Assembly: GCA_029573715.1 (NCBI GenBank)
Contig: JAKQDR010000172.1
Location: 112,241-176,240 of the forward strand
Source: a bacterium
GTDB lineage: Bacteria; Patescibacteriota; Microgenomatia; UBA1406; GWC2-37-13
Length of the DNA stretch: 64,000 nt
Direction: 5' to 3'
Below, one piece after another: positions 12,629 to 61,032 of the stretch. The position numbers and the translations under genes were made by a program. The notes beneath the pieces were generated by a model. It was given only the letters and a program-made list of their open reading frames with translations, was not told the DNA's origin and did no database searches. Each line of letters begins with the position of its first letter. The first letter of the stretch is position 1.

Positions 12629-12756
12629 TTGTGTCACAATTCTTGTGACGATAGCCTTGACCGGCATGTCTTTTTCCTTGGATCGTACTTGTGGCGCCTT
12701 ATAAGCAAGCACCAAAAATACGTTTAGCGACTTTCTTCACTAAAAAGAAAAAAAGA

Positions 12757-14572
<1,816 letters not shown>

Positions 14573-14792
14573 GAAATTGCAGGAATACTCTTTTCATTGC
14601 TGAAAAGGTACCTACAGCTCAATTGCTAGGCTTGCTCGCCTCAATGTGCTTAAAGCACTTTGGGCGAGATGTGTGTGCATTCGGGCATCATACGACGCCC
14701 GAAATAATTTCCTCGATTTATCAATGTGCGGGACACTATTTTACTAGATACGAGACTCAAATACAATGGGCATAGCCTCGGGTGATCAGGAG

Positions 14793-31346: not shown

Positions 31347-31952
31347 TTACTGTTTATCTATCTGCCGATACACCCATTCAATTTTTGTTGCCCAGACGCC
31401 ATTGGGGGAGCTTGGTGTGTAAACCTTCATAATGGCGCTTGGTGACGACATACCTTTGTCATAATACTGCTCGCGCAAGCCTCGGCTGATGGTACGTATG
31501 GCCTGCTCATAACTTTCAAAACGGGTGACTTTATTGCCATATATCCCCCACCCCCAACAGTTATATGAGTTGGAGTGAATGTTTTTGCAAAGTGTTGATT
31601 CATTCATGGCGATAGCGGGCAACAGTCGATAGTCAATGCCATACTGCTCTGCTTGCTCAACGATAAGTCGTGCGTAGGGATACAAAGGAGATTCATGCTG
31701 TGCAAAAAACGATTCAAGTTTGCGCACATTCTCCCGCCTTATAATTTGTAAGGCAGATTCACTTGGTGTATATGCCGTCGTCATTTGATGTGCTTGAAGT
31801 GTGTGATGAATGCTTCGCCATGTATATGCAAGTACCGCCACCGATAAACACGTGATGATAAACAATGCAAATAGCGCTATATCAATCGGCGTATGGAGCA
31901 GCGCGTGTAAACGGCGCAGTAATCGCGATTTGTGATTTACTTGATGTTTCAT
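31347..31952 (-). CDS. membrane-anchored lysozyme-like / transglycosylase-like protein
   Basis: It has an N-terminal TM segment. The segment LLPAIAMNESTLCK...NCWGWGIYG resembles catalytic-Glu regions of SLT/glucosaminidase-type muramidases (by eye). Confidence 0.45.
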   Translation of the reverse strand: MKHQVNHKSRLLRRLHALLHTPIDIALFALFIITCLSVAVLAYTWRSIHHTLQAHQMTTAYTPSESALQIIRRENVRKLESFFAQHESPLYPYARLIVEQAEQYGIDYRLLPAIAMNESTLCKNIHSNSYNCWGWGIYGNKVTRFESYEQAIRTISRGLREQYYDKGMSSPSAIMKVYTPSSPNGVWATKIEWVYRQIDKQ

Positions 31953-32007
31953 AGCAGGGATAAGGATAGTATAATAACAGGTGTAAAATCAACATTAAGC
32001 AGTTCTT

Positions 32008-32081
32008 GCGCCTGTAGCTTAATTGGATAGAGCGTCAGTCTTCGGAACTGAAGGTTGCAGGTTCAAGTCCTGCCAGGCGCA
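32008..32081 (+). tRNA. tRNA-Arg(UCG), CCA not encoded
   Basis: GCGCCTGTAGCTTAATTGGATAGAGCGTCAGTCTTCGGAACTGAAGGTTGCAGGTTCAAGTCCTGCCAGGCGCA folds as a canonical cloverleaf. Confidence 0.9.
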
Positions 32082-32112
32082 CAAGTGGATATACGCATCG
32101 AATCCGTGTCAA

Positions 32113-32214
32113 GCAGGTTCCCCGCAATCGTGTGCGATATGCGGGACTAACTGTCCGTAATGCTCGAGTTTCACTCGTCGCAAACGGTCAGTTGAGCAAG
32201 TCCTGCCAGGCGCA
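32113..32214 (+). repeat. truncated second copy of the tRNA-Arg(UCG) T-arm and acceptor 3' strand, split inside the T-loop by a 76-nt two-hairpin element (32121-32196)
   Basis: GCAGGTTC (32113-32120) plus CAAGTCCTGCCAGGCGCA (32197-32214) reproduce the tRNA 3' part exactly. The insert is CCCGCAATCGTGTGCGATATGCGGGACTAACTGTCCGTAATGCTCGAGTTTCACTCGTCGCAAACGGTCAGTTGAG. Confidence 0.8.
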
Positions 32215-32264
32215 CATTGTTGTATCTTAACGATACGAAGTGAGTTTAGATACAACAGTGACAA

Positions 32265-32336
32265 GGGCTCGTAGCTCAACGGTAGAGCAGTTCCCTCTTA
32301 AGGAATTGGTTGAGAGTTCGAATCTCTCCGAGCTCA
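32265..32336 (+). tRNA. tRNA-Lys(CUU), CCA not encoded
   Basis: GGGCTCGTAGCTCAACGGTAGAGCAGTTCCCTCTTAAGGAATTGGTTGAGAGTTCGAATCTCTCCGAGCTCA folds as a canonical cloverleaf. Confidence 0.9.
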
Positions 32337-32381
32337 CAGACAGTATCAGAAACAGCAATTGCCCCCTCGATGACCCACCAT

Positions 32382-32602
32382 AGAGTTAAGAGCAGTCCGC
32401 CAGTGGGCGGATTGGTTGAGAGTTCGAATCTCTCCGGACTCACATACACCAAGGGGAGGGGTTTCCGCCAAAAGCGGACAGGTTTTGAGAGTTCTCCCGA
32501 TAGTCATTAATAGCTATCGGGACAAATCCCGCAAAGCGGGGAAATCTCTCCGGACTCACATAAACCAAGGGGAGGGGTTTCCGCCAAAGGCGGACAGGGT
32601 TT
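32382..32602 (+). repeat. array of tRNA-like 3' halves and 52-nt direct repeats downstream of tRNA-Lys
   Basis: An uninterrupted T-arm plus acceptor strand GAGAGTTCGAATCTCTCCGGACTCA ends at 32442. A second copy (32487-32558) is split after TTC by TCCCGATAGTCATTAATAGCTATCGGGACAAATCCCGCAAAGCGGGG. The repeat CGGACTCACATAMACCAAGGGGAGGGGTTTCCGCCAAARGCGGACAGGKTTT occurs at 32435-32486 and 32551-32602. Confidence 0.8.
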
Positions 32603-32607
32603 GGAAG

Positions 32608-33279
32608 TTACTTCGCCAGCAGATTTGTGACCAGCTCTTCAATGCCAATGCGTTTCTTCGCGGATGTTTTGACGATTAATATATCAGGATTTACATCGTA
32701 GATATTTTGGATGGCTTTTTGTTCATCAAACTCAGCTACTGATGCCAGATCAATTTTAGAAATCACGCATATATCTGCAGAATGAAACATGGTGGGGTAT
32801 TTGAGCGGCTTATCTTCCCCTTCAGTCACTGCCATAAGTACCATGCGCTTTGTTTCTCCCAGATCATAGCTTGCGGGGCACACTAGATTGCCCACGTTCT
32901 CAATAAATAATATGTCAGCATCTCGCCATGGAAGGGTTTTAAGCCCTTGCTTCACCATACGCGCATCCAGATGACAGGCGCCATGCGTGTTGATCTGATA
33001 TGTGTGAGCTCCGCTTGATGCGAGCCTTTTTGCGTCATGGTCGGTTGATAAATCTCCCACAATGGCACAGACATGCAATCCCTTTGTTATAAGTTCGCGC
33101 GACACGACAGTAAGGAGTTCAGTTTTTCCCGACCCAGGGCTTGATACGACATTGATAACGGTGGTTTTATTTTTTGCAAAGTTGCGCCTCAAAATTTGCG
33201 CCCGCCGATCATTCTCTTCCAATATACCTGTCCGAATGGTCATGATTTTTGGATTGTTACTCATAGGTGATGCGGTCAA
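32608..33279 (-). CDS. hypB: hydrogenase/urease nickel-incorporation GTPase HypB
   Basis: It has the P-loop SSPGSGKTELL, CHLDARMV and ENVGNLVCPASYDLGE motifs typical of HypB. Confidence 0.9.
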   Translation of the reverse strand: MTASPMSNNPKIMTIRTGILEENDRRAQILRRNFAKNKTTVINVVSSPGSGKTELLTVVSRELITKGLHVCAIVGDLSTDHDAKRLASSGAHTYQINTHGACHLDARMVKQGLKTLPWRDADILFIENVGNLVCPASYDLGETKRMVLMAVTEGEDKPLKYPTMFHSADICVISKIDLASVAEFDEQKAIQNIYDVNPDILIVKTSAKKRIGIEELVTNLLAK

Positions 33280-57026: not shown

Positions 57027-57126
57027 GCCGCGGTGGTGGAACATTCAACTCGGACTTGCCGATACGTAAGTACGGCTTAGAGCGAGTGAATCCCCTCACC
57101 ACGTGTGGTGAGTGGGGGCAGACACG
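57027..57126 (+). repeat. 5' fragment of tRNA-Leu(UAA) (acceptor 5' strand plus D-arm) split in the D-loop by a 74-nt two-hairpin element in inverted orientation (57043-57116)
   Basis: GCCGCGGTGGTGGAAC (57027-57042) plus GGCAGACACG (57117-57126) equal positions 1-26 of the intact gene at 57183. The reverse complement of the insert is CCCACTCACCACACGTGGTGAGGGGATTCACTCGCTCTAAGCCGTACTTACGTATCGGCAAGTCCGAGTTGAAT. Confidence 0.8.
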
Positions 57127-59225: not shown

Positions 59226-59230
59226 CGATC

Positions 59231-59326
59231 GGGTTCCCCGCTTCGCATATTGCTTTGCGGGATAAACTGGCAGGTAATGCTCATTGCATTCGCAAACTGC
59301 CAGTTGAACGAATCCGGCAGGCGGCT
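59231..59326 (+). repeat. truncated copy of the tRNA-Thr T-arm and acceptor 3' strand, split in the T-loop by a 72-nt two-hairpin element (59237-59308)
   Basis: GGGTTC plus CGAATCCGGCAGGCGGCTCATAG reproduce the tRNA 3' end and 5 trailer nt. The insert is CCCGCTTCGCATATTGCTTTGCGGGATAAACTGGCAGGTAATGCTCATTGCATTCGCAAACTGCCAGTTGAA. Confidence 0.8.
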
Positions 59327-59336
59327 CATAGTTCAA

Positions 59337-60708: not shown

Positions 60709-60935
60709 ACCAGCTTCCTTATTTACTATGAACACATGTGGGTGGCCCGCCACAGTTCGGGCTTTCGGCTTAGGTCGCATATCTGCGACACAAGAATCGT
60801 ATTTCTAACTATCTTGCAATAGTTAGAAACGATCTCTATGCATATTTTCGCTGCGCCTCATGCGCTCACTTATCGGCGGGCATTGATATACCTAACCTCG
60901 CCATATGTTGCTTTGCTCGCTAAGGTATATCAATG

Positions 60936-61032
60936 TGCCCGAGAGAGGATTTGCTCAACGGGCAGTATACGAATGCAATGAGTAGTACCTGCCCGTTAGT
61001 CCCGCGAAGTCTTGACGAAGTGGGGAACCTCC
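60936..61032 (-). repeat. truncated copy of the tRNA-Leu(GAG) T-arm and acceptor 3' strand, split in the T-loop by a 71-nt two-hairpin element (60954-61024)
   Basis: The minus strand reads GGAGGTTC [CCCACTTCGTCAAGACTTCGCGGGACTAACGGGCAGGTACTACTCATTGCATTCGTATACTGCCCGTTGAG] CAAATCCTCTCTCGGGCACA. Confidence 0.8.

Follow-up and report, generated by a model that had tools for sequence, protein, structure and literature searches.

Tandem hairpin-bearing tRNA-Lys pieces in a Microgenomatia genome: a probable gene-less relic of SegB-like cassettes

Introduction

Phage T4 encodes, within its tRNA cluster, the free-standing GIY-YIG homing endonuclease SegB, whose 27-bp recognition site includes the conserved T-psi-C motif (PMC2330249). 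The enzyme cleaves tRNA genes internally, at RAWTSGAAC (the T-loop sequence GTTCSAWTY in reverse complement), and drives recombination-dependent tandem amplification of tRNA segments (PMC13096335). The flanking tRNA DNA is co-converted, and SegB homologues are statistically associated with tRNAs (PMC2330249; PMC13096335). Phage SegB is the closest studied system to the subject of this report, an array of tRNA-like pieces that lies between a tRNA-Lys(CUU) gene and hypB in the chromosome of a bacterium from the Patescibacteriota (class Microgenomatia; UBA1406; GWC2-37-13). The array is located in a 64,000-nt stretch of assembly GCA_029573715.1 (contig JAKQDR010000172.1, positions 112,241 to 176,240 of the forward strand), which we call the window; positions given without a contig name are those of the window.

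Three other kinds of described systems resemble parts of the array. In the Allomyces atp6 gene, Paquin et al. reportedly found in 1994 that a mobile endonuclease open reading frame (ORF) brings along a replacement gene end and displaces the resident end. Integrases are said, in a 2002 account by Williams, to use the anticodon loop and the T-loop of tRNA genes as classical crossover sublocations. Finally, there are repetitive hairpin elements, to which the bacterial REP/BIME sequences and miniature inverted-repeat transposable elements (MITEs) are comparable. Such elements are tolerated in the variable regions of rRNA and are not removed from transcripts. Described examples are the double-hairpin elements of Allomyces, the GC clusters of yeast mitochondria, and the repetitive hairpin elements of sponges (PMC2800124).

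In what follows, G000 denotes the source genome, G001-G010 (G003, G006, G007 and G009 among them) denote relatives, C-numbers denote contigs, and L157, L159, and L162 denote other assemblies. We call a surplus partial tRNA copy a spare, and we call it plugged when a hairpin interrupts its loop. We argue that the array is probably a gene-less relic of small, selfish, SegB-like cassettes that invade tRNA genes at their loop-coding DNA. A full-text literature search returned no description of the bacterial arrangement, a GIY-YIG cassette with plugged tRNA spares.

Results

Three tandem units follow tRNA-Lys(CUU)

The intact tRNA-Lys(CUU) gene (32265..32337, plus strand; ARAGORN; 71 bits with Rfam; acceptor GGGCTCG/CGAGCTC) is 100% identical in G003. 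It is followed on the same strand by three tandem units with the order D-stem 3' strand, a hairpin that we call SH, variable region, T-arm, acceptor 3' strand, and trailer; SH stands in place of the anticodon arm in all three. Unit 1 (32390..32444) is the least decayed and consists of the D-stem 3' strand GAGCAG (32390-32395), SH with the sequence TCCGCC-AGTG-GGCGGA (32396-32411), an intact T-arm (32417-32434), and the acceptor 3' strand CGGACTCA (32435-32442). The next stretch (32443..32494, plus strand) holds the trailer and the start of unit 2, that is, CAAGGGGAGGGG, SH, and TGAGAGTTC.

Unit 2 (32462-32558) contains SH in the form TCCGC-CAAAA-GCGGA (32464-32478), the T-stem 5' strand TGAGAGTTC (32486-32494), and a double hairpin (DH) of 48 nt (32495..32542, plus strand; 60 bits with our covariance model R1). 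DH is composed of CCCGATAG..CTATCGGG, a spacer, and TCCCGC-AAA-GCGGGG, and it is inserted in the T-loop exactly between C56 and G57, after GTTC. The remainder of the unit, AATCTCTCCGGACTCA (32543..32558, plus strand), supplies AATC, the T-stem 3' strand, and again the acceptor CGGACTCA (32551-32558). Unit 3, which begins at 32578 and is cut off by hypB, is truncated: the stretch 32559..32609 (plus strand) holds a trailer, SH with the sequence TCCGCC-AAA-GGCGGA (32580-32594), and a degenerate T-stem 5' strand, TTTGGAAGTT, that reaches into the hypB stop codon (32608-32610). The bordering hypB gene (CobW/HypB GTPase; 32608..33279, minus strand, convergent; from the ORF list) was identified through a Pfam match (PF02492) of an identical product elsewhere.

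Unit 1 is preceded by a decayed hairpin insert of the D-loop, TGCCCCCTCGATGACCCACCATAGAGTTAA (32360..32389, plus strand). Its CGATGACCCA (32367-32376) recurs in the D-loop insert of a split pseudo-tRNA-Lys on contigs C152 and C239, in both cases directly before GAGCAG. The units are spaced 106-116 nt apart, and the 116-nt period can be read as the stretch from position 57 of one T-loop up to position 56 of the next, with DH added. A repeat search returned a direct repeat of 67 nt with 93% identity (32427-32493 versus 32543-32609), far above chance within 800 nt.

A sequence-only reading of the window had already described two T-arm/acceptor modules ending in CGGACTCA at 32442 and 32558, the intact T-arm of the first behind a tetraloop hairpin in the place of an anticodon arm, the T-loop of the second split by a double hairpin, and a last hairpin that ends 13 nt from the convergent hypB stop (32594 versus 32608). 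We recovered all of these; the 52-nt repeat with three mismatches that it reported also holds and can be extended to the 67 nt given above. It placed module 1 correctly but cut it short, as the tRNA-like part reaches further 5', into GAGCAG and the D-loop insert with CGATGACCCA. We also considered whether the first 23 nt after tRNA-Lys could be a decayed 5' acceptor and D-arm of unit 1, and rejected this at an identity of 5/21, which is random.

The stretch from tRNA-Lys to hypB shows no mismatch in 373 nt across eight independent assemblies (JGI, Logan, ENA, and NCBI), and therefore the array is not an assembly artefact. These assemblies were retrieved through identical HypB sequences starting from the ATG at residues 6 and 13; the TTG start gave no match. 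With HypB 100% identical throughout, the identity of the eight reflects one species only.

Related loci carry a minimal GIY-YIG gene

In relatives, an ORF of 80-90 amino acids that consists of the GIY-YIG catalytic domain only (Pfam E-values 1e-14 to 1e-18) lies between the intact tRNA and the plugged copy. The catalytic residues (Y5, Y16, G18, R26, H30, and E62) are conserved in the GIY-YIG alignment. The T-loop type of cassette is found at tRNA-Ser of G001, on G000 contig C265, and elsewhere, with the stop codon of the nuclease in the spacer of DH. The D-loop type is found at tRNA-Gln and tRNA-Asn on C123 and at Lys(UUU) in G003; here, the stop codon is the tRNA's own U8-A9-G10. The anticodon-arm type occurs at tRNA-Lys(CUU) of G007, where the stop codon falls in the SH loop, and at tRNA-Lys(UUU) in two other genera of the family. 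This G007 locus is homologous to the one described here and carries both the GIY-YIG ORF and the same anticodon-arm hairpin. The predicted protein comprises 84 amino acids in G007 and 78 at the Ser locus of G001. A GIY-YIG ORF is also present at the Lys(UUU) loci of G003, G108, and G357. Our locus has in common with the cassettes an intact tRNA with adjoining partial copies on the same strand, and a hairpin at the exact loop position of a copy.

The stop codons follow a pattern of their own. In the relatives (L065, L068, and L061), GIY-YIG ORFs located upstream of the intact tRNA end in ..GP*, the invariant tRNA residues U8-A9-G10 providing the TAG; for ORFs downstream of it, the TAG comes from the DH spacer (CTAG) or the SH loop (TTTAG).

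A scan of named genomes with a five-member GIY-YIG alignment gave 559 relatives, and we inspected the best 80 loci. At 53 of these best 80, a tRNA lies within 700 nt, nearly always on the same strand. A partial copy of the adjoining tRNA, often broken at 57/58 by an insert of about 22 nt, is present at about 35 of them. The best 80 loci stem from Patescibacteria, Bacteroidota, Ignavibacteriota, Omnitrophota, and others.

The hairpins behave as elements

The SH of unit 1, taken as the 18 nt GTCCGCCAGTGGGCGGAT, has an exact copy at C86:10906-10923, in the D-loop of a tRNA-Leu(TAG) 5' fragment (chance expectation 5e-5). SH replaces the anticodon arm likewise in G006, G007, G009, G010, G108, G280, and G357. 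The DH family, as collected with covariance model R1, is present in nine of the 11 genomes of the genus and in only two of about 290 other genomes of the class. About 24 of the 26 DH copies have GGTTC on one side and (G)AATCC on the other, within a partial tRNA copy that follows an intact tRNA. Two copies are inverted, and the orthologous tRNA-Ile spares of G003 and G006 hold DH in opposite orientations. The stems are maintained: 99.3% of the stem cells are paired, with changes on both sides (compensatory) in five of the nine pairs of hairpin 1. DH has inverted termini of 5-6 nt (CCCCG..CGGGG), occurs in roughly one to seven copies per genome, is confined to tRNA loops, and has no readable target-site duplication. 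Hairpin loops accept further, nested hairpins (G001, C16), and units 1 and 2 of our array form an empty/filled pair for DH. By this comparative pattern, DH and SH are elements and not mutated tRNA arms; multi-copy and found in either orientation, the hairpin modules appear to behave as mobile units. The sequence-only reading had named MITEs as one likeness of the modules; such a likeness would apply to the inserted hairpins and not to the tRNA-like modules.

Exact-pattern scans of JGI metagenome contigs with DH and with the trailer gave no match, and a loose regular expression for D-loop inserts was dropped after it returned 499 chance matches. Two other identities of the T-loop insert were set aside. 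An insertion of the IS200/IS605 kind 3' of GTTC was ruled out: DH can stand in either orientation at one and the same site, and there is no TnpA gene. A ribozyme or intron does not fit either: by eye, the hammerhead core (CUGANGA/GAAA) does not match, and a group I intron would need more than 48 nt.

The same pattern might also mean that DH and SH are autonomous miniature mobile elements that seek the loop DNA of dispensable tRNA copies, the copies having arisen by ordinary duplication and the GIY-YIG genes being unrelated neighbors. Most plugged copies in the genus have no ORF beside them, which fits this explanation, as do the two orientations at the tRNA-Ile spares, the lack in unit 1 of the DH that fills unit 2, and the identical SH in two unrelated spares. 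The hairpin elements of mitochondria also spread without a linked gene (PMC2800124). Against it stand the strong enrichment of this nuclease family beside tRNAs (53 of 80 loci), with partial copies across the ORF, and ORF ends that are welded to the hairpins through stop codons in the DH spacer or SH loop. In addition, no transposase candidate is known, and no target-site duplication is visible. We therefore regard fully autonomous hairpins as unlikely.

Transcription and lack of tRNA function

The array lies behind an Arg-Lys gene pair. Its first gene is an intact tRNA-Arg(UCG) (32008..32082, plus strand; ARAGORN; 74.1 bits with Rfam), preceded by a promoter-like site (31948-31975, from a promoter scan). 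Since there is no canonical terminator before hypB, the array is probably transcribed as a tail of this pair.

One could take the units for working tRNA-like RNAs, an option that the sequence-only reading had named, or for processing signals. They might be mini-helices on which RNase P, RNase Z, or the CCA-adding enzyme act, 3' stabilizers or terminators of the Arg-Lys transcript, or decoys that bind a nuclease directed at tRNA. Apart from the probable transcription, the predicted folding is more stable than that of shuffled sequence (z = -3.9), pseudo-tRNA-Lys sequences with a replaced anticodon arm occur in several genera (in G280 as a complete cloverleaf), and the array is identical in the eight assemblies. 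Against this, those assemblies represent a single species, and the content of the tRNA-Lys locus differs in every genome of the genus. No unit has a 5' acceptor strand, and the T-stem of unit 3 is broken and cut off by hypB. The hairpin loops are free to vary and to take up nested hairpins. When the region was searched with the tRNA model (RF00005), only the two intact genes scored; the modules, which have no anticodon loop, were unmatched even at E <= 10. A search of Rfam 15 at the gathering threshold and at E <= 10 likewise gave no family for modules or hairpins, the only matches being chance-level models of plastid untranslated regions that mimic antisense tRNA. A function of this kind is very unlikely, and the units are most likely co-transcribed junk without tRNA function.

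Origin of the deviating acceptor strand

The sequence-only reading held that the acceptor of the modules is foreign and cannot pair with the 5' strand of tRNA-Lys. The second statement is too strong, as CGGACTC and GGGCTCG differ from a regular pairing by one C-A mismatch and one extra G-U pair. The first was borne out in that the tRNA of this genome with a fitting acceptor, GGGTCCG/CGGACTC, is another one: CGGACTC is perfectly complementary to GGGTCCG, which forms the 5' acceptor strand of the tRNA-Lys(UUU) on contig C239. The last 34 nt of the module match this tRNA-Lys(UUU) at 33 positions and the resident tRNA-Lys(CUU) at 32. A two-base change converts the complement of GGGCTCG into the perfect complement of GGGTCCG; hence, the pieces stem from a Lys gene of the GGGTCCG type. 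By this alignment, the modules represent 3' pieces displaced from a tRNA-Lys gene that has this type of acceptor, and not simple att-type duplicates of the resident tRNA-Lys(CUU), which the sequence-only reading had also excluded.

The trailer of the units (CAAGGGGAGGGG-TTTCCGCC..GGCGGA-CAGG) differs from the trailer at the present Lys(UUU) locus. A homologous trailer is found behind a CGGACTCA end in the same-genus genome G001 (C16:1-100). At the Lys(UUU) locus of the source genome, an intact gene of the GGGTCCG type is nested within the split pseudo-tRNA-Lys, the contigs C152 and C239 overlapping by 141 nt. The acceptor and T-arm of the split pseudo-tRNA (GGGCCCA.., TCAGAGTTC) are those of the intact Lys(UUU) in the close relative G003. 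The plugged piece behind the intact tRNA-Arg of G006 differs from that gene in allele type. Given the Lys(UUU) nesting and this tRNA-Arg mosaic, foreign spares are recurring, and they are compatible with horizontal replacement of tRNA alleles. As a side observation, the flanking stems at the C152/C239 locus, TCCCGTACC and GGTAAGGTGCGGGA, resemble an opened SH hairpin.

An acceptor that fits a real Lys type, the intact T-arm, and the reach of unit 1 back to the D-stem are also what a degraded second tRNA-Lys gene would leave, that is, a tandem paralogue with slippage duplicates and no mobile element. However, the refuting condition named in the sequence-only reading does not hold: an intact second tRNA occurs here in none of the relatives, and the parts of the modules are common at other loci. 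The hairpin in the place of the anticodon arm has a verbatim copy elsewhere, the T-loop insert is one of many related copies that share a fixed point of insertion, and at least 17 tRNA loci show the same pattern. This makes simple decay of a paralogue very improbable. That the modules are attL/attR-type scars from the integrase-mediated insertion and loss of a phage or island at tRNA-Lys is scarcely credible: direct partial duplicates of the tRNA 3' end, with breaks at the anticodon loop and T-loop, recall integrase sites, but there is no integrase, recombinase, or island gene between 29.5 and 35.5 kb, the units are merely 106-116 nt apart, the acceptor is not that of the resident gene, and the crossover model gives no hairpins inside loops.

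Genome-wide pattern and dynamics of the units

Of the 61 tRNA genes of this genome, at least 17 are accompanied by a partial copy no more than 700 nt away. The 3' pieces begin at T-loop positions 55-57, and for the 5' pieces the break falls in the D-loop or the anticodon loop. Several families of inserts occur in the spares: the 48-nt DH, a 76-nt type (at Arg, Thr, and two Leu genes), a D-loop type, and SH. Within the window, 3' pieces of tRNA-Thr(UGU) (59227-59327, plus strand) and tRNA-Leu(GAG) (60935-61032, minus strand) carry the 76-nt T-loop insert, and a 5' piece of tRNA-Leu(UAA) (57027-57126, plus strand) carries a D-loop insert.

The neighboring tRNA-Arg has its own spare 3' piece (32113..32215, plus strand), in which a 76-nt two-hairpin insert separates GCAGGTTC from CAAGTCCTGCCAGGCGCAC. 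Together with a 31-nt spacer, it makes a 133-nt unit with T-loop boundaries. This unit is present once in the window and in L159, and as three perfect tandem copies in L157, a 448-kb JGI contig that is otherwise identical. L162 was among the assemblies compared, and two further (NCBI) assemblies have a scaffold gap at the unit. Tandem tRNA-Glu(UUC) units, composed of 3' end, 66-nt trailer, T-stem, and DH, lie at contig ends (C247:1-250 and the end of C248). Positions 1-100 of C247 are nearly identical to the first 100 nt of the reverse-complemented C248 end, so the two contigs probably join across the repeat. Contigs of G003 and G001 also end at tRNA-Lys, and in G010 a tandem array has a nuclease gene inside every unit. 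In these genome bins, arrays of this kind probably explain contig ends at tRNA loci more generally.

The source genome comprises 1.79 Mb in 313 contigs, as compared to 0.8-1.3 Mb in its relatives. It has duplicates of several tRNA species: there are five tRNA-Cys, for instance, and C208 carries a further tRNA-Lys(UUU) that is dissimilar to the first. The bin may be a strain mixture or include foreign contigs.

Other features of the window

Between tRNA-Arg and tRNA-Lys, an inverted repeat forms a trailer hairpin, CATTGTTGTATCT..AGATACAACAGTG (32215..32260, plus strand), a motif that recurs behind other tRNA genes. A 25-nt exact copy lies behind tRNA-Ile (C248:103835-103859), and similar hairpins were found in G009 (L016) and at C123:2236-2280. 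The consensus CATTG..TATCTTARCGA..TAGATA..CAATG stands directly 3' of several tRNA genes. This hairpin may be a processing signal, a termination signal, or another repeat family. The ORFs between 29.5 and 35.5 kb encode small Cys-rich proteins, a 201-amino-acid protein, HypA and HypB, an EamA transporter, and a Dak2/DegV protein. The 16S rRNA gene of the window (12756-14575, minus strand) is 1820 nt long against a model of 1533 positions, with about 290 nt of insertions.

Discussion

A proposed SegB-like origin of the array

A complete cassette, as represented in the relatives, comprises an intact tRNA gene, a GIY-YIG gene of 80-90 amino acids, and a partial tRNA copy with a GC-rich hairpin in its D-, anticodon-, or T-loop. 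As phage SegB does at the T-loop motif, the nuclease would cut the loop-coding DNA of a tRNA allele that is free of the cassette. Recombinational repair would then copy the cassette into the cut; the tRNA piece it carries would keep one gene intact, and the other piece would become the spare. We infer this copying from the architecture of the loci and from the allele mosaics. The next step is visible in the sequence: a hairpin module in the loop of the spare destroys the loop motif. Such plugs would protect the spare or serve the nuclease. The nuclease gene would later be lost, and units bounded in the T-loop would amplify or contract, a copy change of the kind that is seen at the neighboring tRNA-Arg. 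At our locus, one spare would have been hit successively, first by SH and then, in the T-loop of unit 2, by DH.

We class the locus as a gene-less relic and not as a complete member because no GIY-YIG ORF is present here and one is present at the homologous G007 locus. This particular array would once have held a nuclease gene.

Several points weigh against a SegB-like origin. Neither tblastn nor the ORF list revealed a GIY-YIG ORF or a remnant of one at this locus, so that the link to a nuclease rests on relatives and other loci, and the activity and target of these minimal nucleases are predictions. The hairpin modules could be independent, loop-seeking elements that need no nuclease. The assignment of the pieces to the GGGTCCG type depends on small numbers, the units differing from the resident Lys(CUU) at only two of 34 positions as compared to one of 34 for Lys(UUU). 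If the assignment is right, the displaced piece is of a non-resident type, whereas a strict patch model expects the resident type; with a foreign-type spare, a block transfer or an earlier resident allele must be assumed. Finally, the array does not vary among the eight assemblies, and hence its own mobility is not demonstrated.

We also considered that the hairpin-plugged pieces are not scars but working parts of a structure-guided nuclease system. They may be part of the transcript of the tRNA operon or form DNA cruciforms by extrusion, with the hairpins as a handle for the bare GIY-YIG domain. The tRNA-derived arms may guide the nuclease to tRNA genes that match them, or serve as decoys and so shield the tRNA genes of the host; the foreign Lys acceptor may then have been kept as a targeting or immunity specificity directed at the other Lys isoacceptor. 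We think this quite unlikely.

Comparison with described systems

A relic of SegB-like cassettes would share with SegB itself the GIY-YIG gene among tRNAs, units bounded by GTTC/GAATC, changes in copy number, and co-conversion of alleles. SegB belongs to T-even phages, whereas the present system is found in the chromosomes of bacteria (Patescibacteria and other phyla). Its nuclease is a bare catalytic domain of 80-90 amino acids without the DNA-binding part of SegB. Hairpin-plugged partial tRNA copies are its hallmark, and D-loop and anticodon-arm sites are used besides the T-loop. At the locus described here, the nuclease gene itself is missing.

The mobile ORFs of fungal mitochondria are alike in that the cassette supplies a gene part and leaves the target intact, and the dead, displaced fragment may differ in sequence. 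Their targets, however, are protein genes of organelles, and no hairpin plug at a defined structural position is described there. With the repetitive hairpin elements, our modules share being short, GC-rich, multi-copy, and made of one or two hairpins with conserved stems and variable loops, nested or in tandem. They differ in targeting the loop DNA of partial tRNAs near-exclusively and exactly (56/57) and in their link to a GIY-YIG gene in complete copies. Integrase att sites also feature direct 3' partial tRNA copies downstream of the intact gene, with anticodon-loop and T-loop sublocations; here, by contrast, there are units of about 100 nt, loop hairpins, and tandem arrays, and neither integrase nor island. 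The sequence-only reading had proposed tRNA-derived repeat units, possibly like short interspersed nuclear elements (SINEs). Their derivation from tRNA stands, and tRNA-derived sequence is what the array has in common with SINEs and small RNAs; the likeness to SINEs ends there, as we found no features of retroelements or retrotransposition, no 5' half or anticodon arm, and no dispersal as units.

Implications

The array is a well-defined feature and an ordinary, gene-less member of an unusual and widespread class that is apparently unpublished. This locus adds to the class the anticodon-arm variant, successive hits of SH and then DH on one spare, and a spare with the acceptor type of another isoacceptor. 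For annotation, such fragments should be recorded neither as tRNAs nor as att sites.

Few stretches of DNA are as conserved as tRNA genes, and this suits them ideally as landing sites for selfish DNA. Together with its relatives, the locus represents a compact way to exploit the tRNA genes of bacterial chromosomes, in which a minimal nuclease is combined with a tRNA piece that preserves the gene and with hairpins that plug the loops. If the proposed mechanism is true, it would account for pseudo-tRNA fragments and for assembly breaks at tRNA loci in genome bins of the candidate phyla radiation, as well as for the horizontal replacement of tRNA alleles. The nucleases would be a possible source of very small enzymes that recognize sequence or structure. 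The range of SegB-type biology would then extend beyond phages, to many phyla and to the smallest genomes of bacteria.

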